From NCBI GenBank assembly GCA_963805045.1, contig CAWDTC010000012.1, forward strand, positions 64,211 to 128,210: a DNA stretch of 64,000 nt. The letters run 5' to 3'. Under the pieces are notes generated by a model that worked only from the letters and a program-made list of their open reading frames with translations, had not been told where the DNA came from and made no database searches. Positions 3,999-60,400 of this stretch are shown one piece after another. Both the position numbers and the translations under genes were made by a program. How positions within the stretch are numbered: position 1 is the stretch's first letter; every line of letters begins with the position of its first letter. The stretch comes from Candidatus Aminicenantes bacterium (GTDB lineage Bacteria > Acidobacteriota > Aminicenantia > Aminicenantales > Saccharicenantaceae).

Positions 3999-4066
3999 TA
4001 AGAAGGGGGTCAGGTCTACTTTCTTACAGTTTTTCTGATAGAAAGTAGACCTGACCCCTTCTTTTA
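3999..4066. repeat. palindromic element, family 1 (GGGGTCAGGTCTACTTTC ... GAAAGTAGACCTGACCCC)
   Basis: Inverted arms of about 23 bp around a 17-nt loop. A near-identical copy lies at 17819-17884 with the loop in the opposite orientation. Confidence 0.8.
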
Positions 4067-11107: not shown

Positions 11108-11253
11108 GATTCCGCCCTTCTATTCGGCACATTAGCTCGCTCTTTTTGCCTTGATGTTAATTTGTGGTCGCCGATTCGTTTTGGGCCTCGTGAAGGGCTG
11201 CGCTTCTTATATCCGCCCTCTTTTGGTGGCAAGTTATTGCCACTCGCAAGTGA

Positions 11254-12663
11254 TCAGTTCGGCCCCCACTTCATGAGGACCGGCGGCACGAGGGCCAGGG
11301 CCGCGAAGAGGACCCAGAGGACTGAGGAGCGGCACCATCCACCTGGCCCACTTCTCCCACTTCAGCCCGGCCAGCCCCAGGACCCCCATGGTCACGCCCG
11401 AGGTGGGCAGGACGGGATTGATGTACTCCGCCAGCTGAAAAGCGAAGACAGCCGTCTGCCGCGTAATCCCCACCAGGTCGCCGAGCGGCGCCATGATGGG
11501 AATGGTCAGGGCGGCCTGGGCCGTCCCCGAGTGGACGAAGAAGTTGATGACGCACTGCGAGACGAACATGAGCTCGGCCGAGATGAGCGGGTGGAAGCGC
11601 GAGATGGCGCCGGCCAAGCCGGCCAGGATGGTGTCCAGGATCCGCCCGTCCTGGGCCACGATGAGGATGGCCCGGGCCGTGCCGATGATGAGGGCCGCGT
11701 TGACCATGTCCTTGGCCCCCTCGACGAACGACTTGCCGATCTCGTCGCCGGTGAGCTTGCCGACGATCCCGGAGAAGATGCCCATGGCCAGGAAGACGCC
11801 GCCGATCTCGAGGATGAACCAGTGGTATTTCAGGATGCCGAAGACCATGAAACCGAAGCCGGCGCCGAAGACGGCCATGACCCGCTTGTGGGCGGCCGTC
11901 AGCGGCAGCTTCTCGATGACCGGCCCGCCGACCTGGAGCTTCTTCCGCTTCTCCAGGTCCTCCTCGTAGGTGGGGCTGAGGGCCGGGTCCTTACGGATGC
12001 GGGCCGCATAGCGCATGACGACGGCGATGACGATGGACGTGCCGCCCGCCCAGATGATGAGCCTGTAGCCGAGCCCGGAATAGAGCGGCAGGCCGGCGAT
12101 GCCCTGGGCGATGCCCACGGTGAAGGGATTGAAGAACGCCCCGGCGAAGCCCGATGCCGCCCCCAGGAACGGCAGGGCGACGCCGACGATCGTGTCGTAG
12201 CCGAGCGACAGCGAGAGCGGGACGAAGATGAGGATGAAGGGCATGGTCTCCTCGCACATGCCCCAGATGGCGCCTCCCAGGGAGAAGATGATCATGGTCA
12301 CGGGAATGAAGAGGACCCGGAGGGTGGTGCTCTGCCCGAACTTCAGCGGACAGGTTGTGGATGACGGTCGAGACGGCCCCGGTCTTCTGGATGACGGAAA
12401 AGGCGCCGCCGCAGATGAAGACGATGATGATGATGGCCGCGGCGTCCACGAAGCCCTCTGGCCGGCGAGACGAACAGTCCGCCGAGCCCCTGCGGCCGGC
12501 TCGCGGTCCGCTCGTAGGACCCGGCCACGGGAATGGTCCGCCCGCCCTTCTCGATCCGCTTGTACTGGCCGCCCGGGATGATCCAGGTGGCCACCACGGT
12601 CAGGACGACCATGATGTAGATGAGGATGAGGGTGTGCGGGAGCTTCAGCTTCTTCAAGCTCAT
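11254..12663 (-). CDS. YfcC-family membrane transporter (DcuC/AbgT-like), frameshifted
   Basis: N-terminus MSLKKLKLPHTLILIYIMVVL. A large intact middle ORF (11234-12301) is very hydrophobic. The C-terminus VLWVLFAALALVPPVLMKWGPN is recovered in a third frame. Confidence 0.75.
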
Positions 12664-17818: not shown

Positions 17819-17884
17819 CTAAGAAGGGGTCAGGTCTACTTTCTACCAGTAAAACTGAAAGAAAGTAGACCTGACCCCTTCTTC
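17819..17884. repeat. palindromic element, family 1
   Basis: AAGAAGGGGTCAGGTCTACTTTC ... GAAAGTAGACCTGACCCCTTCTT; second copy of the element at 3999-4066. Confidence 0.8.
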
Positions 17885-28350: not shown

Positions 28351-31300
28351 TCAGCGCCCAGGGGCGAGCTTCACCGTCATGATCTCGAACGGCTTGAGTG
28401 CGACGTCCATGAAACCCGATTCCTTCGTCTCATGGGTCCCGGCGCTCCTGACAGTGAAACCGAAGAAGACATCGCTCGTGAGCCGGGCGGCGGTCGATCT
28501 CCCCGCGATCTCCCGGAGGCGAGCGACCGGCGTCCCGTCCGCATCGAGCCAGAGGGCCTGGACGATGACGTTCGGCTGGTCGACGGAAACGAAGGACTCG
28601 GCCTCCGTCGTGAACCGTCCCTTGTTCTTCGCCGGGAGCCAGGCCACGGCGAGGGGCGTGTGGACCTCCCAGCCGAAGCGGGAGGGCGCGACCCGGTCGG
28701 GCTCAACGGCCCCCGCGGCGGCCGGGCCGGGCGGCAGGCTCGTCAGAGAGTAGCGGAACTCGACCCGGCCTTCCTGGCTGGCCTTGAAGTTCGTCATCCA
28801 GTAGTTGTTCATGGCATAGGAGAAGACCCAGGCGTTCGCGAGGTCGAGCTTCGTCAGCCACTTGCCGGTGTTGATGTCGCCGAATTCGACGAGCGGCGCC
28901 TCGACCGGCGACCAGACGACCCGGGCGTCCTTCCCGGAGAATTCGACCCAGTGCTGGACGGTGTGCCAGTCGAGCGTCGTGCCCGGGAGCTGCTCCTTCC
29001 CGGGCGCCATGTCGGCGTCCGAGATCTCGAAGCGCACGTTCACGGGGACTGTCCCCGAAGGGGACTGTCCCCCCTTTGGCTTCGCCGACCTTGAACGGGA
29101 AGGCGAAGTAGACCGCTTCGGGGTCGAACGTCTCCTCCTTGTCGAGGATGTTGACCAGGTCGATGCGTTTGACGTCCTCGTAGAGGATGATGCGCTGCTC
29201 GAGCGGAGCGGCACATCTTCGGCGCGCTCCTCGACGACGAGGCTCCTGGCCACCGGTCCGTCCCATTCGGCCTTCACGGCGGTCGTCGCCTCCGGCGACC
29301 ACCGATGGAACGCCGCCCGCTTGGTCATGTCGTCGACGGCTTTACGGCCGCCCTCGGGCTGTTCGTAAATGTAGGTATTGAGCTTCCAGGGGCTCGACGG
29401 GTCGACGAGCTCGCGGCCCGTCTCCTTGTCGATGAGGCTCGAGATGCCGCCGGTCTTCGGGTCCACGGCCAGCCGGTAGAACCGGCTTTCGAGGACGGGA
29501 TGGCCGGCGTCGTTCGGCCTCGCCGTCTCCGCTTTGGGTTTCCGGGCGTCGCCCTCTCCCGGCCGGACCGAGAAGACGGCATAGCCCATCGCCGGGACGT
29601 CCTTCGCCACGAGCAGGATGGCGTCCTCGCCCGTGACCTGGAACTTGGCCTCGCCGCCCGTGCGCCGGTCGATGACGCGGAGCTTCCCCTTAGCCTCGCG
29701 CAGAGGCCCGGCCGGAAGCGCCACCCGCACGACGTCGGTCCGCGCCCAGGAGAGCGGGTTAAAAACGGCGAACTCGTAGTCGCTCTCGGCGCTGATCAGT
29801 CCGCGCCAAGCGCCTCCATGCCCCGCCGGAGGAGCGTCCGCGACGCCTCGTGCGCCTTGTAGGCGTAGGCCGACTTGACCGCCCACTGGCCGCGGGCCAG
29901 CTCCGACCCCGGGTCGTCGATGCTGTTCCACGCCCCCCAGGTGTGCTCGTCATAGAGCATCGACTGGTCCCAGGCCTCGCGCAGCGCCCCGGCCGGGAAG
30001 CGGAGGCTCTTTTCCCTGTCCGGTTCGAGCCGCGCCGCCAGGGCCGAGACCTTCTCGGCCGTGACGAGCTCGTTGTGGGCGACGCGGTTGAGCCCCGTCT
30101 CGTAGGCGGTCGAGGCGACGCCGTCGGTCCAGTAGTCCGGCCAGCCGAGCTTGTGGACCGGGAGTCCTCGGCCCGTAGTCCTTCTCCAGCTTCTCGAAGA
30201 ACTCGTGCAGGGTCGCCAGGCGGAGATGCGGCGAGGCGAACTTCTCGTTCCACTCCTTGACCCGGTCGGACAGGGCCCGGCCCGGCGGGCAGTTGTCCGT
30301 GACCCAGGCGCTGATGTTGAAGGCGATGATGTCGTAGGGATAATCGCCGCGCGTCTCGAGCTTGGCCAGGTACTCGCCGAGCTTGGGCGCGCTCCGGGCC
30401 AGGGGCTCGTGGAGCAGGAGCTCGTAGTTGGCGAAGAGGTAGTGCTCGCCGTTCCAGTGGAGGATCCGGCTGCCGTCGGGCGATTCCCACCAGAAGGGGT
30501 TGGGCCTGCGGAGCGGGGCGCGCGACCGCGTCTCGTTGATGCCCGTCGCGTAGTAGCGGATGCCGTTCTGGTTGAAGATCTGCGGCAGGGCCCAGTCGAA
30601 GCCGGTGACATCGTCGTTCATGGCCGCCCGGACCGGGAAGCCGTAGCGGCGGCCGAGGGCGCAGGGGTTCTCGACGGCCCGGATGATCTCCTCGTGGGCG
30701 AAGAGGTCGGAGCCGTTGACCTGGATCCCCGAGAGCTCGACCCGGCCGGCGCGGATGAGGTCGACGAGCTCCCGGAACTTGGCCTCGGGCCGCATGGCGC
30801 GGTAGTTGCTCGAGGGCCCAGGAGATCTCGATGTTCCAGCGGAACTTGGCGTCGTCGGGATAGCCGTCGGTCTGATGACAGTACTCGATGACCGAATCGA
30901 GGTACTCGAGATGGTTCTGGACGACGCGCGACTGGAGCTCCGTGTAGCCGATGTCGTTATGGGAGTGATGGAAGAGGTCGACCGTCCAGCGCCGGGCCGG
31001 GGCGAGCGTCAGCTCGACCGCGACGGTCCCGGACGGACCGGCCGCGCCCGCGGAGGCCGGCGCGGCGCCAGGCGCGAGAGCCAGACGGACCGGGGTCGGC
31101 CCGGCGACCTCGGGAATGAGGACCTCGAAGGCGTTGATGCCTGTCTTGAGGCGCAGGGACCGGAGGGCGGCGTCGAGGGCGACGGGCCGGCCCGCGACGG
31201 AGGCGCTCAACACGGCCGCGGCTTCGGCCCCCGGGTTCTCGACCGTGATATCGATGACGCGCTTGACCGCCGCGCCGTCCCTGACCAGAAGCGCCGTCGG

Positions 31301-38391: not shown

Positions 38392-38420
38392 GGGGACACG
38401 TACCTCCGGTACATGTCCCC
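38392..38420. repeat. palindromic element, family 2 (GGGGACAyGTACC ... GGTACrTGTCCCC)
   Basis: GGGGACACGTACCTCCGGTACATGTCCCC lies between the GT2 start and the TolC stop, followed by ...CCCGATTTA. Confidence 0.8.
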
Positions 38421-43010: not shown

Positions 43011-43050
43011 AAGAGGGACAGTCCCCTCCCGGGGGGACAGTCCCTACTCT
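43011..43050. repeat. palindromic element, family 3
   Basis: AAGAGGGACAGTCCCCTCCCGGGGGGACAGTCCCTACTCTT lies in the divergent intergenic region, about 80-110 bp upstream of the sigma-54 promoter. Confidence 0.7.
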
Positions 43051-44677: not shown

Positions 44678-44715
44678 GGGGACATGTACCGAGGCGTGCC
44701 GAGGTACGTGTCCCC
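44678..44715. repeat. palindromic element, family 2
   Basis: GGGGACATGTACCGAGGCGTGCCGAGGTACGTGTCCCC lies between the first gene and permease 1. Confidence 0.8.
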
Positions 44716-47881: not shown

Positions 47882-49324
47882 ATGCTTAAGGGCCTGCTGG
47901 GACGACAATTGAGCGAGGATATCCTCACCGCGAGGTTCTTTGTCAGCCTGGCCCTAATCCTGGGGGCGGTCTGCGCCTTTTCCTTAGTGTTTGCCGATCA
48001 GTATCATAGGTCCCAGGCCACCTATGCTGCGGCCGTGGCCAAGAACGATCGCGACCTTCAGCAATTCGCGACGTCGCCCGCGGGAAACCTGGGCTCTTCC
48101 ATGCAGACCTTTCTATTAAGGCCTAGACCTGAGTTATTCATTTCAGAAGGCGGCGAAAGCACGATGCCGCAGGGGCTCCTTTATGAGCCATACAATTACT
48201 CCCTGCAATTGTTGAGCCCGAAGGAGGAAGCCTTCGGCGCCCAGAACTACAGGTCCATCAGCAAGCGCGAAAGTCTCACCGATGTCCTGACGTATTCCCC
48301 CGACCTGATGTTCATCGTTCAAGTCCTGCTGAGCTTCTTCGCCCTGATCCTGGCCTATGGTGCCGTGACCGGCGAAAAAGAGAAGGGGACGTTAGGTCTC
48401 ATCTATTCCAACTCGATAAAACGGGGGCCTTTAATCCTGGCTAAGTATCTCAGCGCCCTCCTGACGGTCGGCATCTCTCTTTTTCTCGGCCTCATTTTAA
48501 GCCTTATCCTTCTCCACGTGTTGTCCGGAGCTCCGCTTTCTTCGTCCTTGATCTTCAGTTTTTTGCTCTTCCTCGTGGTTTCCCTCATCTATCTCTCCGT
48601 CTTCGTTCTCTTGGGGATTGCATGCTCGGTTCTCAGCCATAGGAGCAAAAACAGCCTGGTCCTTTGTCTTTTGGCCTGGGTCTTATTAGTGATTGTCTTC
48701 CCAAGATCAACAGGGATGCTCTTGACGCTCAAGCGCTTTGACGTGCCCACGGGAGAGGAAATCAACCAGTTGGCACAAAAGGCCTCTTATGAAACGGAGG
48801 ACCGGTTAGAAAAGCAGTTGCCACCTGAGTGGTCTCGCTTGGATTTTTCGAAGTATCGCCACAACGAGCTATTCCTAAAGCTACTATTCGCCTATGACAA
48901 GGCTCGTCAAGATGTCTTGGATTACTACCTGCGGAAGAAGCTCTCGGCCATCGAGGCCTCCAGGAAGATCAATTTCCTCTCTCCAGCGTCGCTTTTCGAG
49001 TACTCGGCGTCCTCGGTTTCGGGGACGGGGTTGGTCCATTTCGAGAACCTCTGGATGCAGTCCCAACGCTATGGTGATAGTTTCTTGTCATTTGTCAGGG
49101 ACGAGAGGAGCGTGCTTGAAAAAGGCGCCTTTTTTTATTTGGATAGCGACACGATCTCCGACAAGCCGCTCGACTTCAACGCCATCCCCAAGTTCGAGGA
49201 CCGGCTTCCCCCGGCTGCTGGCCGTCTCAAGGACGCACTTCCCTACCTTGGCCTCTTGGTTTTTTACAATCTCTTTCTTTTCGCTTTCGTCTTCTACAAA
49301 TTCCAAAGCTATGATGTTCGGTGA
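47882..49324 (+). CDS. ABC-2-type permease paralog 3 of 8 (lower GC), intact
   Basis: MLKGLLGRQLSEDILTARF, VTGEKEKGTLGLIYSNS, LSPASLFEYSA and IPKFEDRLP. It ends FQSYDVR. Confidence 0.75.
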   Translation: MLKGLLGRQLSEDILTARFFVSLALILGAVCAFSLVFADQYHRSQATYAAAVAKNDRDLQQFATSPAGNLGSSMQTFLLRPRPELFISEGGESTMPQGLLYEPYNYSLQLLSPKEEAFGAQNYRSISKRESLTDVLTYSPDLMFIVQVLLSFFALILAYGAVTGEKEKGTLGLIYSNSIKRGPLILAKYLSALLTVGISLFLGLILSLILLHVLSGAPLSSSLIFSFLLFLVVSLIYLSVFVLLGIACSVLSHRSKNSLVLCLLAWVLLVIVFPRSTGMLLTLKRFDVPTGEEINQLAQKASYETEDRLEKQLPPEWSRLDFSKYRHNELFLKLLFAYDKARQDVLDYYLRKKLSAIEASRKINFLSPASLFEYSASSVSGTGLVHFENLWMQSQRYGDSFLSFVRDERSVLEKGAFFYLDSDTISDKPLDFNAIPKFEDRLPPAAGRLKDALPYLGLLVFYNLFLFAFVFYKFQSYDVR

Positions 49325-49365
49325 AAAACGAATGTGCTTGCGTTTAAGGATAAATAAAAAAACCT

Positions 49366-49392
49366 GGGACACGTACCAGGGTACATGTCCCC
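49366..49392. repeat. palindromic element, family 2
   Basis: GGGACACGTACCAGGGTACATGTCCCC lies between permease 3 and the ATPase gene. Confidence 0.8.
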
Positions 49393-49412
49393 ATTAAGAG
49401 AGAGGAGGCCAC

Positions 49413-50156
49413 ATGGCAAAACCACAACCCATCCTGAAGACCGAGGACCTGTCCAAACGGTACGAGGACGGCGTCCTGGCGGTAGACCACCTGAACCTGA
49501 ACATCTACCCGGGTGAAGTCTACTGCCTGCTCGGGGCGAACGGCGCGGGGAAGACGACGACGATCAACCTCTTCCTCAACTTCATCCCGCCGACGACCGG
49601 GACCTGCTACGTCAACGGCATCGACGTCACCAAGGACCCGCTCGAGGCCAAGAAGTACGTCTCCTTCGTCTCGGAGAACGTCATGCTCTACGGGAACTTC
49701 ACGGCCCGCCAGAACCTCGACTTCTTCGCCAAACTCGGCGGCAAGACGGCCCTCGCGAAGAACGACTACTACCAGGTCATGCGCCGGGTCTCGCTCCAGG
49801 AGAAGGCCTTCGAGCAGCGGGTCAAGAACTTCTCGAAAGGCATGCGGCAGAAGCTCGGCATCTCGATCGCCGTGATCAAGGACGCGCCGGGGATCCTGCT
49901 CGACGAGCCGACCTCGGGCCTCGACCCCAAGGCGGCCGAGGAGTTCCTGGAGATCCTGGGCGAGCTCAAGAAGGAAGGCAAGGCCATCCTGATGTCGACC
50001 CACGACATCTTCCGGGCGAAAGAGATCGGCGACCGGGTCGGGATCATGAAGGAAGGGCGCCTGGTCATGGAGCGGACGCGCGAGGAGCTCCAGTACGAGG
50101 ACCTGGTCAAGATCTACATCGACTACATGAAGTCCGAGCCGCTGACGCTCCAATAA
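49413..50156 (+). CDS. ABC transporter ATP-binding protein (ABC-2/CcmA-type), intact
   Basis: Walker A GANGAGKTTT, signature FSKGMRQKL, Walker B ILLDEPTSGLD, H-loop STHD. Confidence 0.9.
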   Translation: MAKPQPILKTEDLSKRYEDGVLAVDHLNLNIYPGEVYCLLGANGAGKTTTINLFLNFIPPTTGTCYVNGIDVTKDPLEAKKYVSFVSENVMLYGNFTARQNLDFFAKLGGKTALAKNDYYQVMRRVSLQEKAFEQRVKNFSKGMRQKLGISIAVIKDAPGILLDEPTSGLDPKAAEEFLEILGELKKEGKAILMSTHDIFRAKEIGDRVGIMKEGRLVMERTREELQYEDLVKIYIDYMKSEPLTLQ

Positions 50157-50223
50157 GCGCCAGGGGACATCGCAGGCCCGTCTCCAATGCGGGGCCGGCT
50201 CGGCCAGCCCGGAGACGATCGCC

Positions 50224-51666
50224 ATGCTGAAAACAATCATCAAGAAAGAAGTGCTGGAGACCGTCTTCAGCTACCGTTTCCCGCTCTTCGCCGTCATCTG
50301 CCTCCTCCTCATCCCGCTCGGGATGACCGTCAACCACGCGAACTACGCCAAGCGCGTCCGGGACTACAGCGAGCAGGTCCGGCTCGCCGACGAGGCGGCC
50401 TCGGCCATCAAGATCCAGGACGTCATGGCCGGGACCGTGGCCATCAAGGGGTTCCGCCGCCCCGCCCCGCTCTCCGTCTTCACCCAGGGCTTCGAGAGCA
50501 CGCTCCCCCGCTATTACGAGTTCACCCAGGACGGTTTCAAGCCGGGCGAGTCGGCGAGCGACGACGAATCGATCCTCTCGGTCCAGGGCAAGGTCGATTT
50601 CGTCTTCCTCGTCCAGATGGTCATCAGCCTCATCGCCCTGCTCTTCGCATCCGACATGATCTCGGGCGAAAAGGAGTCGGGGACGCTGCGGGCCATGCTG
50701 GCCAACAGCCTGCCGCGCGACACGCTCCTCGCCGGCAAGATCGGCGGCGGCTATCTCGCGCTGTGGGTCCCGTTCCTCGTCGCCTTCCTGGCCGGGGCCG
50801 TCGTCCTCATGCTCGCTGCCTTCCCGCTCTTCGCCGGAGGGACGGCCGGCCGCGTCCTCCTCATCTTCCTGGTCACGTCCCTCTTCGTCCTGACGTATTT
50901 CACGATCGGCATCGCCGTCTCGACGAGCACGGCCAAGGCCCGGACCTCGCTCGTCGCGATCCTCATCATCTGGGCCGCCTTCCAGCTCATCATCCCCAAG
51001 CTCGGGGACATGGCGGCGCGCCTCATCCACCCGGTCCGGACGGAGACCGAGGTCTCGCTCCAGAAGTCGCTCCTCGTCCGCTCGCTCGACATGGACCAGG
51101 CCAAGGAGCTCGGCCGCCAGTACGACCTCATCTTCGGCGCGGCCCCCAAGGGCGCCGCGGACGACGAGAAGTCGCCGGAAAGGAAGAAGTGGGACCCGCT
51201 CCGCGACGACATCCAGCGGCAGGCCCGGGAGAAGAAGAGCCAGCAGCTCGCGGCCATCGACGAGACGTACGCCCAGGAGAGGCGGCGCCAGCTCGACCTC
51301 GCCGTCGACCTCTCGCTCGTCTCGCCGAGCGCGGCCTTCGCACGGCTCCTCGCCGACGTCTGCGGCACGGGCGAGCTCGAGCGGGCCAAGTACCTCGAGG
51401 CCGTCCGGGCCCACCAGAAGGCCCTCGACAACGAGCTCTTCAGCAAGGTCAAGCGGATCCTCATGATCCACGAGGGCGGGGGCATGTCGATGTCGTTCTC
51501 GGCCATGCCGGTGGACGCATCGAAGCTGCCGAAGTTCACGATCACGCCGGCGACGATGGCGGAGGCATTCAAGGCGAACGTGCGGAGCCTCCTCTCGCTC
51601 CTCTTCTGGCTCGTGGCGCCCTTCGCCTTCGCCTACGCCAGGTTCATCAAGTACGACGTGAGGTGA
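50224..51666 (+). CDS. ABC-2-type permease paralog 4 of 8, intact
   Basis: MLKTIIKKEVLETVFSYRF, ISGEKESGTLRAMLANS, VSPSAAFARLL and LPKFTITPA. It ends FIKYDVR. Confidence 0.75.
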   Translation: MLKTIIKKEVLETVFSYRFPLFAVICLLLIPLGMTVNHANYAKRVRDYSEQVRLADEAASAIKIQDVMAGTVAIKGFRRPAPLSVFTQGFESTLPRYYEFTQDGFKPGESASDDESILSVQGKVDFVFLVQMVISLIALLFASDMISGEKESGTLRAMLANSLPRDTLLAGKIGGGYLALWVPFLVAFLAGAVVLMLAAFPLFAGGTAGRVLLIFLVTSLFVLTYFTIGIAVSTSTAKARTSLVAILIIWAAFQLIIPKLGDMAARLIHPVRTETEVSLQKSLLVRSLDMDQAKELGRQYDLIFGAAPKGAADDEKSPERKKWDPLRDDIQRQAREKKSQQLAAIDETYAQERRRQLDLAVDLSLVSPSAAFARLLADVCGTGELERAKYLEAVRAHQKALDNELFSKVKRILMIHEGGGMSMSFSAMPVDASKLPKFTITPATMAEAFKANVRSLLSLLFWLVAPFAFAYARFIKYDVR

Positions 51667-51684
51667 AAGAGGAGGCGCCGCGCC

Positions 51685-53022
51685 ATGCTAAAAACGATCA
51701 TCAAGCGCGAGATCCTCGAATACCTGAAATCGGCCAGGTTCCTGATCGGCCTCGGCATCACCCTGGCCCTGGCGGCCGGCAGCACGGTCCTCAACGTCCA
51801 GGATTATAAGGGGCGCCTGCAGGACTACCAGTCCGCCCTGCAGGAACTGAAGAGCGACCGTTTCTACATCCGCCTTTACCGCCAGCCCCAGGTCCTCAGC
51901 ACCCTCATCCAGGGCAAGGACCGCAAGCTCGGCAACAGCATCATGTTCACCTACCTGCGGCCTCCCGGCCACGACCTCGGGCTACATGGGCGAGGGACGG
52001 AGCCAGCCCCAGCGCCTCGTCTCCGGCTTCGCGGCCGTCGATTTCGCTTTCATCGTCCGGGTCGTGCTCAGCCTGCTCGTCGTCTTCATCGCCTACAACG
52101 CCGTGGCCGAGGAGAAGGCCTCGGGGACCCTGAAGCTGACCCTGGCCAACCGGGTGCCTCGGGACCAGCTCCTGCTCGGCAAGTTCCTGGGCGGCTGGTT
52201 CGTCATCATGGGCTCGCTCGCCGTCTCCGCCCTCGTCTCCCTGATCATCGTCCTCTCCCATTCCTTCATCGCCTTCGCCGCCGGCGAATGGACCCGCCTC
52301 CTCGCCTTCATCGGGCTCTCCGCCGTCTACCTCACGGTCTTCTACGCGGTCAGCCTGTTCGTATCGGTCCTGGTCGACAGACCCTCCATCTCCCTGATGA
52401 TCCTGCTCCAGGCCTGGGTCTTTCTGATCGTCATTTATCCCAACCTGGGCGTCATCGCCGCGGAGAACCTGACCAGGCTCCCGTCCCAGGAGCAACTCGC
52501 CCAGCAGAAGAACGCGGCCTTCCAGCCCTACGCGGCGGAGCAGAAGAAGACCCAGGAGGCGTTCATCCAAGCCGTCCGCACGGGAGGGGGGATCTCAAAG
52601 GAGCTCGGCGTGCGCAACGTCGAGATCTGGGCCAAGCGGGCCGAACTCGACCACCAGGTCGATGAGGAATACGGCCGGAAGCTCACCGCCCAGACGAACC
52701 TCGCCCGAGCCATCTCACCCTCTCGCCGGCCGTCCTCTTCGACCAGGCCGCCGAGCGGCTCGGCCGCACGGGGATGGCCGAGTACGAGCGCTTCATGCGG
52801 GAGGTCTACCGCTGCTGGCAGCAGGACGTCGAGCGGTCGAAGCTCATGTATACGGACCGCGAAGCTTACAAGAAGGCGCCGCCCCTCGATTTCCGCGTCC
52901 CGGTCGAATCAACCTCCGAGGCCTTCGCCGCGACCTGGCTCGACTGGTTCCTCCTCGCTTTCTTCGGGCTGGCCCTTTTTGCCCTGGCCTATACGGCCTT
53001 CCTGAGAAAGGACGTGAGGTGA
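51685..53022 (+). CDS. ABC-2-type permease paralog 5 of 8, frameshifted
   Basis: MLKTIIKREILEYLKSARF and VAEEKASGTLKLTLANR. After a shift, LSPAVLFDQAA. It ends FLRKDVR. Confidence 0.7.
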
Positions 53023-53026
53023 GGCC

Positions 53027-54428
53027 ATGAGAACGATCATCCGGAAAGGAGCTCCTGGATCACCTGAGAAGCGTCCAGTTCGCCGTCCTCCTCGCGGCGA
53101 GCGTTCTCCTGTTCGCCGCGAACGGGCTCGTCTTCGTCCAGCAATACACCCGGCTCAACGCCGAGTACCGTCTCCATGTCGCGCAGGAGGAGCAGCACCC
53201 CAGCACGGTCGGGACCTCGCTCTACAGGTCCCCGAACCCCCTCCTGTTCATGGCCGAAGGGGGAGAGAAATCGGTCCCGCAGGGATACGGGCTGAGCCCC
53301 AAGCTGACCCTCTCGCCTTTCCCCGCCGGGACCACGAATTTCAAAATGCCGGACATCCCGGAGCTTGATTGGGCCTTCATCGTCAAGATCGTTTTCAGCC
53401 TGTACGTGATCCTCCTCGGGTTCGAGGCCGTGTCGGGCGAGAAGGAGCGCGGCACGCTCCGGCTGGTGCTGTCCAATCCGGTCGGCCGGTTGAGACTGCT
53501 GACGGGGAAGTATCTCGCAGTCATGGCGAGCGCCGCCATCCCTCTCGCCGCCGGCCTCCTCATCAGCGTCATCGTCATCGGCATCTTCCTCCCGGGCGTG
53601 ATGGGCGCCCAGAACGTGGTGCGCATCGTCTTCTTCTTCGTCCTCGCCCTGGCCTACCTGTCCCTGTTCGCGTTCATGAGCCTTCTCCTGTCCTCGCTCA
53701 TCCCCCGTTCCTCGCTCGTCCTCCTCGTTCTCCTGGCTTTCTGGATCTTCTCCGCGTTCTTCATCCCCGACACGTCGAGCATCATCGCCCAGAGATTCTC
53801 GAAGGTCCCGAGCGAGTACGCGATGGCCAAGCTCCTCGGGCCGACCATGCAGAAGCGAGGTCTTAAGCCGGATCGCGGTCATCGGAGACGGATCCAGAAA
53901 GGCGAGCTCAAGACCGAAAAGGACGTTCTGGAGGAGTCCGACCGCGCCTTCGAAGAGGGCCAGGACAGCGTCCGCAAGCTCTATGACGACTATGAAAATG
54001 CCATGCGGGAGCGCGCCGATCTAGCCCAGCGGATCTCGCGCGCCTCGCCGGCGGCCCTTTTCCAGTACGCCGCCGAGGCCGTCTCCGGGACCGGGCCGAA
54101 CGCGGAGTCCCGGTTCCTCAGGGACGTCAGGAACTATTCCAGGACCTACGATGACTATATCCTCAAGAAGGTGGGGAAGGTCGTCGGCACGTCGCCCTGG
54201 AGCTTCTCGACCGGGGCGACGCTCAACGGCAAGTACATCAACCTCCAATCGCCCTTTCCCCAGGAATACTCGGGGGACAAATCGGATTTCCCGAAATTCT
54301 CGGAGAGCCGGCCGTCGCTCGTCGACGGCCTTCACGACGGCCTGTGGGACATCGCCGGCCTGCTCGTCTGGAACATTCTGCTGGCCGGGCTGGCGTTTTC
54401 GGCCTTCTTGAGGACGGACGTGAGGTGA
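53027..54428 (+). CDS. ABC-2-type permease paralog 6 of 8, one frameshift at codon 8
   Basis: After correction it reads MRTIIRKELLDHLRSVQF. VSGEKERGTLRLVLSNP, ASPAALFQYAA and FPKFSESRP. It ends FLRTDVR. Confidence 0.75.
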
Positions 54429-54433
54429 AATAT

Positions 54434-54462
54434 GGGGACATGTACCTAGGGTACGTGTCCCC
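54434..54462. repeat. palindromic element, family 2
   Basis: GGGGACATGTACCTAGGGTACGTGTCCCC followed by GATTTAGGAGG, between permeases 6 and 7. Confidence 0.8.
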
Positions 54463-54479
54463 GATTTAGGAGGAGGCCC

Positions 54480-55733
54480 ATGACCTGGACCATCGCCCGC
54501 AAGGAGATCGCCTCGAACCTCCTGAGCTATAAGTTCTTCGTCGTCCTCCTCCTCATCGTCCTCCTCGTCGCCACGAGCCTGTTCATCATGCACCGCGACT
54601 TCAAGAGCCGCATGGCCGATTACCAGGTCAACCGGCCCAAGCCCGGCGATCCGATGGCGCTCGTCGCCCCCACCCCCTTGTCGATCTTCGCCAAGGGCCT
54701 CGACGACGCCATGACCCGCTCCTTCGAGGTCGCGGTCATCGGCATCACCGTCCGGGCCGGGCAGGCCTCGGGCAACATCATCTATTCCTTCTTCCCCGCG
54801 CCCGACTTCCTCTACGTCGTCCGGGTCGTCCTCTCGCTCGTCGCCCTCCTCTTCGGCTTCGACCAGGTCAGCCGCGAGCGCGAGCAGGGGACGCTGAAGC
54901 TCCTCCTGGGAAGCTCGATCTCCCGGGCCAAGGTCCTCGCCGGCAAGTGGATCGGGAACTTCCTGAGCCTGGCCGTTCCGTTCCTCCTGGTGACGCTGAT
55001 CGGCCTCCGCCCTCCTCTCGCTCGACCCGGACGTCCATTTCTCGGCCGGCGAGCTCGGGCGCCTCGCCCTGATCCTGGGCCTCTCCCTGCTCTACCTGGG
55101 GTTCTTCCTCAGCCTGGGGATTCTCGTCTCGACGCTGACAAAACGGGCCGCGACCTCCGTCGTCGTCCTCCTCTTTCTCTGGGCGCTCTTCGTCTTTGTC
55201 ATCCCGAACCTCGGCACGCTCGTGGCCCGGCAGTTCGTCGCCGTCCCCTCGGTCCGGGCCCTGTCCGAAAAGCAGGAGCAGGCGTGGACGCGGGAGGTCC
55301 TCCTCGGCATCAGCAAGGGCGGGAACTGGGCAGACCACATGCGGACGCTGAGCGCCGAGGACGACCGGATGGCGCAGGACTACCGCTTGAAGTTCGAGCG
55401 GCTGGTCCGGCTCTCCCGGAACATCAACCGTGTTTCGCCCGCGGCCAGCTTCCTTGACGCGGCGAGCGAGATCGCCGGCACGGGCATCGGCGAGGAGACA
55501 CGCCTCAAAGGGGACGTCGTCCGCTACAAGGACTCGATCATCGACCGAATGATCGCCGACGTCGACGCCAGGAAGCGGGACGCGCAGTACCCGGCCTTCA
55601 CCTACAAGCCGCGGCCGCTGGCCGAGATCTTCGCCGCCGGGCGCCCTCTTCGACACGGCCTGGCTCGCCTTTTTCAACATCCTGGCCGTTCGCCCTGGCC
55701 TACGTTGCTTTCGTCCGCTACGACGTGAGGTGA
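54480..55733 (+). CDS. ABC-2-type permease paralog 7 of 8, frameshifted
   Basis: MTWTIARKEIASNLLSYKF, VSREREQGTLKLLLGSS, VSPAASFLDAA and YPAFTYKPRP. After correction it ends FVRYDVR. Confidence 0.7.
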
Positions 55734-55737
55734 GGCC

Positions 55738-57170
55738 ATGATGAAGACGCTCATCACCAAGGAGGTCCGGGCCAACTTCCTGTCCTTCCGGTTCCTGGCG
55801 AGCTTCGTCATCCTCTTCGTCGTCGTCGCCGTCACGGCCCTCGTCCTGGCCGGCGACTACACGCGGAAGCTCGACGAGTATTCCCAGCGCCAGGCCGAGC
55901 TCGAGCGATACCTCCGGAGCTACGCCCATTTCAACCGGATCGGCAACATCGTGACGCCGACGCAGCCGCCCATCCCCTTCCAGGCCCTCGTCCGGGGCCT
56001 GACGGCCGACGTCAACATGGAGGGCTTCGACGACGACCCCCTGCCGGTCATGTTCCCGCTCATCGACCTCGTCTTCATCGTCACCATCCTCATCAGCCTC
56101 ATCGCCCTGATCCTCTCCTACGACGCCGTCTGCGGCGAGAAGGAGGACGGGACGCTGAAGCTGATGCTCTCGAACGGCCTGCGCGCGGTCGAAGATCGTC
56201 CTGGCCAAGCTCGCCGGCGGCGTCGCTGACCCTGGCCGCGCCGTTCCTCGTTTCGCTCGCGACGGGCATGCTCATCATCCTCCTCCACCCGCGGGTCAGC
56301 TGGACGGGCGCGGATTGGGGCGCTCTCGGGCTCATCGTCGCCGGGGCGCTGCTCTACATCGCCGTCTTCTATCTCATCGGCATCTTCATCTCGTCAGCCC
56401 ACAGGTCGAGCGCCTCGTCGATCATGACCTCGCTCTTCGTCTGGGTCCTTCTCGTCCTGGTCGTGCCCAACCTCAGCCCTTACGTTGCTTCGTTCCTCTC
56501 GCCGGCGCCGTCGCGGATCAAGGTCGCACGGGAGGTGCAGCGTCTGACGGACACCGACCGGGACGACTCGGGGAGAAGCTCATGGACCAATACCGGGGCG
56601 AGGTCCTCAAGCAGTACCCGGTTCTTGCCGAGCGGCTGACGGAGAACGAGGTCAAGGCCAGGGTCGCCGCGGACCCCGAATACCGAAAGGCCTACGAGGC
56701 CATGCGGGCGGCCGTCGAGAGGGCTTGGGAGGAGGCCAACCTGACTCCAGAGCGCCAAGGCCGACGCCCTGAACGAGGACCTCAGCCGCAAGGAGACGGC
56801 CCAGACGGGCCTGGCCCGGTCGATCTCCATGGCCTCGCCGCTCGCCGATTTCAGCTATCTCGCGACAGACCTGTCTTCGACCGGGACGGAGAACATGGCC
56901 CACTTCGGGCGGATCGGCGCGGCCTGGGACCAGGCCTTCTTCCGGGAATACCAGCCGAAGAAGATGGCTGAATTGAAGGCGAAAGACCCGACGGCGGACC
57001 TGTGGAATACGGCCATCGACATGACCGATGCCCCGCGGTTCCGCTACGTCGAAGAAGGGCTAGGCGGTCGTGTCAAGGCGGCGCTCCCGCCATTCGCAGT
57101 GCTTCTCGGCTATTGCGTCGTCTTGTTCGCGGCGGCCTACGTCGCCTTCATCCGCTACGACGCCCGCTGA
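55738..57170 (+). CDS. ABC-2-type permease paralog 8 of 8, frameshifted
   Basis: MMKTLITKEVRANFLSFRF, VCGEKEDGTLKLMLSNG, ASPLADFSYLA and APRFRYVEE. It ends FIRYDAR. Confidence 0.7.
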
Positions 57171-59177: not shown

Positions 59178-59334
59178 GGCCTCTCCTCTTCCGCGACCGG
59201 CGTTCCATTGTAAGGAAACCGCCGGAACCTTGTCAAACCGGGCGGCGCCGTTGTCAACGCAAAGTGGAAATGTCCTGTTCTTAGCAACGCGAAAACTCCC
59301 GGCTTCATGGGACGTCCCTGGCGTCCGGCGCGCC

Positions 59335-60400
59335 TCAGGACGAGCGCGGATAGGCGTCGAGGTCGAGGTCTAAGCGTGAGGTCGGGCCGGCGGGCGAACT
59401 TCCGCAGGGCCACGGCCCCGACCATGGCCGCGTTGTCCGTGCAGAGCTTGGGCGACGGGACGAAGGCCGCGAGGTCCGCCTGCCGCGCGAAATCCAGGAA
59501 GCGCGTCCGCAGCCGCGCGTTCCGGGCAACGCCGCCGCAGAGAACGAGCGAGCGGGGCCGGCTCTCGTCGACGGCCCGGCGGACGTGGTCGAGGAGCGAG
59601 CGCGCCACGGTCTCCTCGAAGCTCGCCAGGAAATCCGCGAGCGCCGGACTGTCCTTGGCGATGCCGCTCTCCCGGACGTGCCTCAGGGCGGCGGTCTTGA
59701 GCCCGCTGAAACTGAAATCGAGGCTCCGGTCCTTCGTCCGCGGCACGGCGAAGGGGAACCTCGTCGCGTCGCCGTCGCGGGCCAGTTGTTCGATGACCGG
59801 GCCGCCCGGGTAGCCGAGGCCGAGGAACTTGGCGATCTTGTCCAGCGCCTCCCCGGCCGCGTCGTCTCGGGTCCGGCCCAGGCGCCGGTAGGAGAGCGGC
59901 TCCTCCATGAAATAGAGCGAGGTGTGGCCGCCGGAGACGAGGAGCCCGAGCACGGGGAAGGGGATCTCGGGGTGCTCGAGGAAGGCCGCCTCGAGGTGGG
60001 CCTCGAGATGGTCGACGCCGACGAGGGGCTTGCGGAAATAATAGGCGAGCCCCTTGGCGAAGGAAAGCCCGACGAGGAGCGAGCCGATGAGGCCGGGGCC
60101 CTGGGTCACGGCGAAGAGCCCGATGTCGTCGGCCCGGACCTCCGCCCGCGCCAGGCTCTCCCCGACCACCGCGGCGATCGTCTTGATGTGCTGCCGCGAG
60201 GCGAGCTCGGGGACGACGCCGCCGTAGGGGGCGTGGATCTCGTCCTGCGAGAGGACGATATTGCTCAGGACCTCGGGTGCCGCTAAATTCGGGGGACACG
60301 GACCTTCGGTACATGTCCCCGGGCCGACGGGGAGCTGTCCGGAGCGGAGAACGGCCGCCGACGTCTCGTCACACGAAGTTTCAATGGCCAGCACGAACAT
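59335..60400 (-). CDS. tsaD: tRNA N6-adenosine threonylcarbamoyltransferase, C-terminal frameshift and an N-terminal in-frame insertion
   Basis: IETSCDETSAAV, YGGVVPELASRQH, GPGLIGSLLVG, VSGGHTSL, DDAAGEALDK, GYPGGP and CTDNAAM. The correct C-terminus LDLDLDAYPRSS is in ORF 59335-59529. Confidence 0.9.
60291..60320. repeat. palindromic element, family 2, inside the tsaD coding sequence
   Basis: GGGGGACACGGACCTTCGGTACATGTCCCC with the flanking AAATTCG (GAATTTA on the gene strand). Same core and flank as the intergenic copies. Confidence 0.8.

Follow-up and report, generated by a model that had tools for sequence, protein, structure and literature searches.

An in-frame REP palindrome, probably tolerated as a loop, in the tsaD gene of a Candidatus Aminicenantes bacterium

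How a dispersed palindromic repeat comes to lie within the reading frame of a conserved housekeeping gene is the question raised by tsaD in a 64,000-nucleotide stretch of Candidatus Aminicenantes bacterium DNA (contig CAWDTC010000012.1, forward-strand positions 64,211 to 128,210), referred to here in its full length as the window. tsaD is an essential gene generally, and for this organism that statement is general knowledge only. The repeat belongs to a family of repetitive extragenic palindromes (REPs), here called family 2, which in related contigs is associated with a gene of the REP-associated tyrosine transposase (RAYT) type. Very probably, the insert is a REP of this RAYT-associated kind that TsaD tolerates as an in-frame loop at a permissive turn, and the site has been occupied and remodelled through the history of the clade. 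The features concerned are the following, in window coordinates.

59335 to 60400, minus strand: tsaD coding sequence (tRNA t6A37 threonylcarbamoyltransferase), ATG at 60400, assigned by PF00814 and PDB matches
60275 to 60337, minus strand: extra segment, codons 22-42, QLPVGPGTCTEGPCPPNLAAP, with about 45 nt extra relative to the nearest empty-site orthologs
60292 to 60320, minus strand: family-2 REP hairpin in frame in tsaD, mRNA strand GGGGACAUGUACC GAA GGUCCGUGUCCCC, encoding GTCTEGPCP

The TsaD of the window matches Pfam PF00814 with E=6.7e-91 and TsaD chains in the PDB at 1e-71 to 1e-75. Its metal-binding residues H131, H135 and D322 (His-His-Asp) are invariant across an alignment of 90 homologous sequences. 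In a HMMER alignment to Thermotoga maritima TsaD, a gap of 20 residues falls exactly at the position of the insert. The segment between the conserved SCDET and HxxYGGVVPE blocks measures 42 amino acids in the window, whereas it measures 22 in 62 of 71 TsaD genes from other phyla and likewise in distant Aminicenantes. The nearest orthologs with an empty site (L208, L001 and L002) have 27 amino acids in this segment, and the window has 45 nt more; depending on the comparison, the whole insert amounts to 45-60 nt, with a core of 29 nt. The same insert, GGGGACATGTACCGAAGGCACGTGTCCCC, was found at the same place in an independent contig (L081), which encodes an intact 356-amino-acid TsaD that is 93% identical to that of the window (92.7% nucleotide identity over the gene region). 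The k141 name of this contig suggests a short-read assembly. Because an independent contig carries it, the insert is not a misassembly.

These results largely bear out an earlier note, drawn up from the letters of the window, which had placed about 20 extra residues between the conserved blocks of TsaD and had proposed a dispersed palindromic repeat, inserted in frame and tolerated as a loop. The empty orthologs, the dispersed family and the low confidence of the modelled loop all agree with this, and the stop-free translation given there is exactly that of codons 22-42. Two outcomes that the note had named as contrary to its view were not found: in relatives that lack the element the segment is shorter instead of equal in length, and the insert recurs in L081. 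Its estimate of 63 nt referred to a real extra segment but is too large when measured against the nearest empty orthologs. The note had also described a complete palindrome with a GAATTTA flank. A family-2 palindrome is indeed present, but its stem has decayed: in addition to the G.U wobble of the family, the 29-nt copy contains one extra internal mismatch, and its hairpin has a centroid energy of -19.4 kcal/mol, whereas the three intergenic copies of the window that are intact reach -25 to -31 kcal/mol, with z-scores between -4 and -6. The flank is no feature of the family, whose 133 oriented copies are merely T-rich on the 3' side.

Apart from the copy in tsaD, the family is represented in the window by four intergenic copies.

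38392 to 38420, minus strand: family-2 REP just downstream of where a long minus-strand open reading frame (ORF) ends at its stop-codon boundary (38438); -30.3 kcal/mol, z=-4.3
44678 to 44715, plus strand: family-2 REP with a longer loop, between two plus-strand genes
49365 to 49392, minus strand: family-2 REP about 20 nt upstream of an ABC-transporter ATPase gene
54434 to 54462, plus strand: family-2 REP flanked by two ABC-2 permease genes, with GATTTAGGAGG and an ATG after it

The five copies in 64 kb are near-identical, and dinucleotide-preserving shuffles contain a mean of 0.00-0.01. A 1008-codon ORF running through the copy at 44678 was considered as a second in-frame case and rejected, as the pattern of G+C at third codon positions indicates an upstream frameshift and a stop lies 10 nt before the element. 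According to an exact-pattern scan, at least 120 metagenome contigs carry the palindrome; the family statistics given here refer to the copies among the matches listed for these contigs, together with other fetched loci and the window. The stem comprises 13 bp and the whole element 29 nt, with a 3-nt loop in 111 of 133 copies among the matches listed. One stem position is asymmetric in 139 of the 146 copies among the matches listed, reading T.G on one of the strands and C.A on its complement. The T.G strand has a T-rich 3' flank (35-52% T at +2 to +7) and a moderately A-rich 5' flank; the flank profile of these 133 oriented copies shows no conserved GTAG/CGTC tetranucleotide tag. By a crude test, about 8% of the copies among the matches listed lie inside long ORFs. 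As direct reading shows, all six frames of the 13-bp stems are free of stop codons.

Some contigs harbor the repeat in clusters. Intergenic arrays of five or six family-2 variants spaced by about 59 nt occur in L212 (10200-10551, where one listed match merges two copies) and L213 (10200-10535), and in L115 tandem half-palindromes are read through as five repeats of CVSPFLQTLR. REP clusters can thus evidently expand locally. Further family-2 copies are situated 65-140 nt upstream of the tsaD start and, in one case, downstream of its stop (L085:9858-9903; L206:9907-9935 and 11226-11266), so that the neighbourhood of tsaD is rich in REPs in some genomes.

The association with a transposase was established in related contigs. 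When two Y1 transposases located through a motif search were used to build a hidden Markov model (HMM), the model detected a third such gene, a partial one, in L093, with two copies of the palindrome directly after it. The full-length homologs of this gene (P0121, P0122 and P0124) comprise about 203 amino acids and contain PF01797 (Y1_Tnp). P0124 is named 'transposase [Candidatus Aminicenantes bacterium]' by NCBI, and two more distant matches of the same search, P0177 and P0229, are REP-associated tyrosine transposases according to JGI. In four of four contexts (L093, L211, L212-214 and L215-216) the Y1 gene is flanked by the family-2 palindrome. On the upstream side the nearest copies are in T.G orientation and lie 18-39 nt before the ATG. 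Copies in C.A orientation begin 6-10 nt past the stop in L093, L211 and L212-214; in L215-216 the nearest downstream palindrome is 624 nt away. Because this arrangement matches the REPtron layout, the family-2 palindrome is, judged by its gene context, a REP with a cognate RAYT-type gene, and it is presumably mobilised by this Y1 transposase. The first Y1 transposases encountered (L124 and L004) were considered as partners of family 2 and rejected, being flanked by a different repeat (GGGGTCA..., family 1 of the window). Clustering of all ORFs from 120 contigs yielded only housekeeping orthologs as recurrent gene families beside the REPs.

The family-2 REP was also detected in frame in other genes. 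It occurs at matching positions of a GH38 alpha-mannosidase in four orthologs (L118, L128, L175 and L215), in the linker of MutL (L197) and in a ROK kinase (L145), and a membrane protein with a Wzy domain (L144) harbors three copies in a row, again in frame. All three reading frames are used among these genes. In the GH38 orthologs the REP occupies the same two or three positions, with differing orientation (GHVPEVHVP versus GHVPPVRVP), which suggests that the palindromes flip in place without a change of frame.

The state of the tsaD site was surveyed in 120 TsaD protein clusters of 71-93% identity and in the window, 121 sequences altogether, in which the segment ranges from 24 to 73 amino acids. 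The site is approximately empty (30 amino acids or fewer) in 25 of the 121 and contains clear translated palindromes in 48. Another 47 have a longer segment without a clear palindrome peptide, many of them visibly degenerate, such as GTYPEGTCPP and GTHTSICPP. In the clear cases the same REP is read in two frames, GTCT/GTRT.GTCP and GHVP.VHVP; the first, frame 'a' (GTCT.GTCP or GTRT.GTCP), accounts for 34 of the 48, three of which also have a copy in frame 'b'. Doublets are present in P0040, P0057, P0107 and P0111. A second hairpin family, GGGGACTGTCCC in two copies, encodes GDCPRSGTVPL at the site and is also found between genes; with this peptide, family B of the window fills the site in L085, P0026, P0053 and P0057. 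The near-clade empty state of 27 amino acids exceeds that of 22 found elsewhere by five residues, the extra DNA being GGGACCGGGGTCGGGAC in L002. In L001, L002 and L208 these five residues may be what an older insertion left behind when it was lost.

Orientation and integrity of the palindrome vary as well. The T.G orientation lies on the tsaD coding strand in the window, L081 and L209, the last of which has a perfect copy. The tsaD of L206 contains two copies with C.A on the mRNA strand, and that of L082 a degraded copy, with no other copies in 21 kb. Differences in orientation and frame were considered as decisive proof of independent insertions, an interpretation that was rejected given that in the GH38 orthologs a single position holds either orientation in an unchanged frame. 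They are indecisive because inversion of a palindrome in situ flips mismatch and loop and leaves the length unchanged. Fitch parsimony on a weakly resolved neighbour-joining tree required 20 changes between empty and occupied compared with 23 for shuffled tips; this scatter of empty and filled sites suggests a high turnover.

We propose that the turn joining strands 2 and 3, in TsaD's N-terminal ASKHA subdomain, received a REP copy by insertion or renewal. The element would be translated as a surface loop of 15-20 residues (GTCTEGPCPP) that is probably disordered, and tsaD would stay open because the inserted length is a multiple of three and the stems are free of stops. The site would have remained occupied while the clade diversified, undergoing repeated duplication, family replacement, flipping in situ, decay and loss. 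Such repeated remodelling would make the loop hypervariable in length, at 24-73 amino acids, in an otherwise strongly conserved enzyme. Rather than a functional module, the REP in tsaD is most likely a passenger that is tolerated.

The proposed position was examined in an AlphaFold2 model based on 90 sequences, which has a mean predicted local distance difference test score (pLDDT) of 88. The insert (residues 20-42) is modelled between the strands at 12-19 and 43-51, corresponding to the strand 2-strand 3 turn, although the placement within the predicted secondary structure is of low confidence, with a pLDDT of about 51-56 at residues 21-40 and below 50 at residues 24-29. A small beta-hairpin is drawn at residues 29-34. 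In the cryo-electron microscopy structure of T. maritima TsaBD with tRNA, the tRNA is held by helix alpha7, the beta8-alpha5 loop and the alpha1-alpha2 'lever arm' (Ser31-His50) of TsaD and by TsaB's C-terminal helix (PMC13276492). The strand 2-strand 3 (beta2-beta3) turn is absent from these contacts and lies at the far end of the strand leading into alpha1. Topology and low model confidence thus support, short of proof, a surface loop away from the active site.

Four observations weigh against a neutral passenger of this kind or limit how closely it can be described. An HMM search found no Y1_Tnp (RAYT) gene inside the 64-kb window, so that the association of RAYT and REP rests on related contigs. 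About 80% of the relatives have extra sequence at this one site, which is above the expectation for random insertion. The tsaD genes of L209 and L206 are 77% identical, whereas the stems they contain match completely once flipped (P about 0.001). Stems more conserved than their host gene are not what a purely neutral, old passenger would predict; they call for recent re-insertion, homogenisation or selection. Finally, the assembly of the window is error-prone, and single-base details of its tsaD copy are uncertain.

The high occupancy and the better conservation of the stems leave room for active renewal or a role in cis. It is possible, though unlikely, that the TsaD turn, together with the fixed GH38 positions, is an actively renewed 'landing pad' for REPs, or that the hairpin is a selected cis regulator of tsaD. 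With a landing pad, RAYT or hairpin-driven recombination would re-seed, duplicate, flip and delete copies at the same coordinate. The DNA hairpin would be kept fresher than the essential gene around it, and the protein loop would be hypervariable. If either renewal or a cis role is true, the copy in tsaD would be more than a passive passenger, and the clade would be a natural system for measuring the turnover of REPs and its effect on protein evolution.

Taken by itself, the idea that the hairpin is retained for its action in cis on nucleic acid, tuning tsaD by attenuation, slowed translation or RNase processing with the peptide as a by-product, is improbable. It would account for the conservation of the stems across lineages and for the extra sequence in some four fifths of the related clusters. 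It would also fit the conserved G.U wobble on the mRNA strand of the window, L081 and L209 and the further copies just upstream of tsaD in L085 and L206, and the family-wide sense flanks, T-rich 3' and moderately A-rich 5', resemble a terminator. However, the insert is lacking in 25 of the 121 sequences, 47 have longer segments without a clear palindrome peptide, and the stem of L082 is degraded. Both copies in L206 have the opposite orientation, other genomes have a different repeat family at the site, and the same element lies within unrelated genes. Moreover, a terminator scan around tsaD did not call its copy, where the tail after the hairpin, CGAAUUUAG, does not fit an intrinsic terminator, and the 66 nt around it fold no better than shuffles (z=-0.7). 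An Rfam scan of the whole window returned a tRNA-Ala alone; hence no known RNA family covers the hairpin.

Still less credence is due to the encoded peptide as a functional addition to TsaD, in which the C-x4-C of GTCTEGTCPP would bind a metal or sense redox state, or the loop would provide a new interaction surface. The prevalence of frame 'a' among the clear cases, the two recurring cysteines and the small modelled beta-hairpin could be cited in its favor. Such a function is unlikely because other relatives hold unrelated peptides (GHVPEVHVP, GDCPRSGTVPL) or nothing at the site. In the window copy itself the motif is already altered by a T-to-P change, the insert is modelled with low confidence, and the same peptides are found in unrelated proteins.

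The quality of the assembly was assessed by comparing the reading frames of the window with L082, a syntenic relative that has intact genes. Frame changes occur inside several genes at a rate of approximately one per 1-1.5 kb, with single-base frameshifts at 59371, ~60838 (mtnA), 61975, ~51990, 52715, ~55050 and ~56200. They break the C-terminus of tsaD, mtnA, several ABC-2 permeases and a hypothetical gene, all intact in L082. In tsaD, comparison with L081 revealed an extra A at 59371, and the conserved C-terminus (...DLDLDAYPRSS and stop) is reached only after removing this one base. This points to an assembly prone to errors, possibly from long reads, rather than to pseudogenes or gene decay; sequencing error fits better than decay because the frameshifts also strike housekeeping and transporter neighbours that are intact in L082. 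An artefactual insert, or a tsaD that is a dead pseudogene, in an assembly of low quality is the least credible explanation despite these frameshifts: the insert is in frame and is found again in independent assemblies whose TsaD is intact (L081), as well as in many other relatives, and the catalytic residues are preserved.

The tolerated REP in tsaD was compared with known systems. Rickettsia palindromic elements (RPEs) were reportedly described by Ogata and co-workers in 2000 and 2002 as inserted in frame in protein-coding genes, including housekeeping genes, with the ORF kept and the peptide thought to be located at the protein surface. RPE-1 elements are about 100-150 bp long, and we know of no transposase associated with them. 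The earlier note had likened the tsaD insert to these elements. In behaviour the comparison holds, as the insertions in tsaD and in the GH38, MutL, ROK and Wzy genes are palindromic, in frame and preserve the ORF. In anatomy it does not, since the present element is a REP with a 29-nt core and a RAYT-type partner, set apart from RPEs by length and not by sequence comparison. The hosts differ as well, a high-GC uncultured lineage of metagenome-assembled genomes (MAGs) here and a reduced intracellular genome there.

Closer parallels are the intragenic REPs with GTAG or CGTC tags known from Opitutus terrae, Thauera and Rickettsia conorii (Di Nocera et al. 2013, PMC3733652). These are stem-loops of 20-40 nt with G.T pairs in the stems, mostly extragenic near the 3' ends of ORFs and linked to tyrosine (Y1) transposase genes that are flanked by the same repeats. 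Some copies reside in known genes as singles, dimers or clusters and encode 20-80 extra residues (PMC3733652). Family 2 shares the short stem-loop, the intragenic copies and the link to a Y1 transposase. In contrast to these REPs, it lacks the GTAG/CGTC tag (133 copies), resides in another phylum, Aminicenantes, and in other host genes, and occupies one site clade-wide with a copy number of 0 to about 3. The supplements of PMC3733652 contain no entry for tsaD synonyms, mannosidase or MutL. The layout is also that of the REPIN/RAYT systems of Pseudomonas and E. coli (Bertels and Rainey; PMC3116915, PMC3337134), in which a Y1 gene lies between inverted REPs and related genomes conserve the repeat family. 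Family 2 resembles them in both respects, with a Y1 gene flanked by its own REPs in inverted orientation and a family conserved across relatives. The elements of those systems are described as extragenic with a REP doublet as mobile unit, whereas family 2 shows single hairpins and tandem arrays inside coding sequence.

A full-text literature search found no paper connecting Aminicenantes with in-frame or REP-type palindromic repeats. The tsaD case is a new example within the known class of in-frame REP/RPE insertions, distinguished by the persistent and variable occupancy of a single site. The best-known in-frame palindromic repeats are those of Rickettsia and a small number of REP-rich bacteria. 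To these the present case adds the candidate phylum Aminicenantes, a REP family that has a clear RAYT partner but no GTAG/CGTC tag of the usual sort, and a host enzyme that is essential and near-universal. More than 100 related TsaD clusters, in which the loop is empty, filled, doubled, replaced or decayed, provide a ready series on the persistence and turnover of REPs at one site, and also on how much extra sequence a conserved enzyme tolerates. Such elements inflate and diversify the protein sequences of MAGs and may be mistaken for lineage-specific domains or assembly errors.

Family B, which fills the tsaD site of some relatives, has two copies in the window.

29044 to 29072, minus strand: family B hairpin, GGGGACAGTCCCC TTC GGGGACAGTCCCC, inside a minus-strand coding region
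43015 to 43044, no strand assigned: family B copy about 60 nt upstream of a long plus-strand ORF (boundary 43106), probably intergenic

The family consists of two 13-mers GGGGACAGTCCCC, each palindromic in itself. The reading frame changes across the copy at 29044-29072, which is probably a homopolymer error in a run of C. Its host gene has no Pfam match, and tblastn against all fetched loci gave no orthologs; from the look of its sequence, the region may be the C-terminal part of an alpha-mannosidase. Palindromes of family 1, AAGAAGGGGTCAGGTCTACTTTC ... GAAAGTAGACCTGACCCCTTCTT, lie at 4006-4058 and 17821-17883, with a partial copy near 2240-2304. They resemble the terminal inverted repeats around a Y1_Tnp gene of about 330 amino acids (L124:113-1215 and L004:1560-2640) and have the look of a miniature of that element without its transposase. 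The Y1 transposase of L004 is located directly upstream of mtnA-tsaD.

Two further observations concern the surroundings of tsaD. A strong match to a sigma-70-like promoter (TTGACA, 18 nt, TACAAT; 11/12) was found at 59207-59236 on the minus strand, about 100 nt beyond the corrected tsaD stop (59335) and inside the frameshift-extended tsaD ORF; it precedes by about 30 nt the ATG (59177) of a downstream gene for a multihaem cytochrome c. From about 48300 to 57170, an ABC ATPase gene is followed by ABC-2 type permease genes, paralogs of one another arranged in tandem, five of which are present in L082. The array appears as direct repeats spaced by 1.3-1.4 kb (family D1), and its synteny is kept in L082 and L206.

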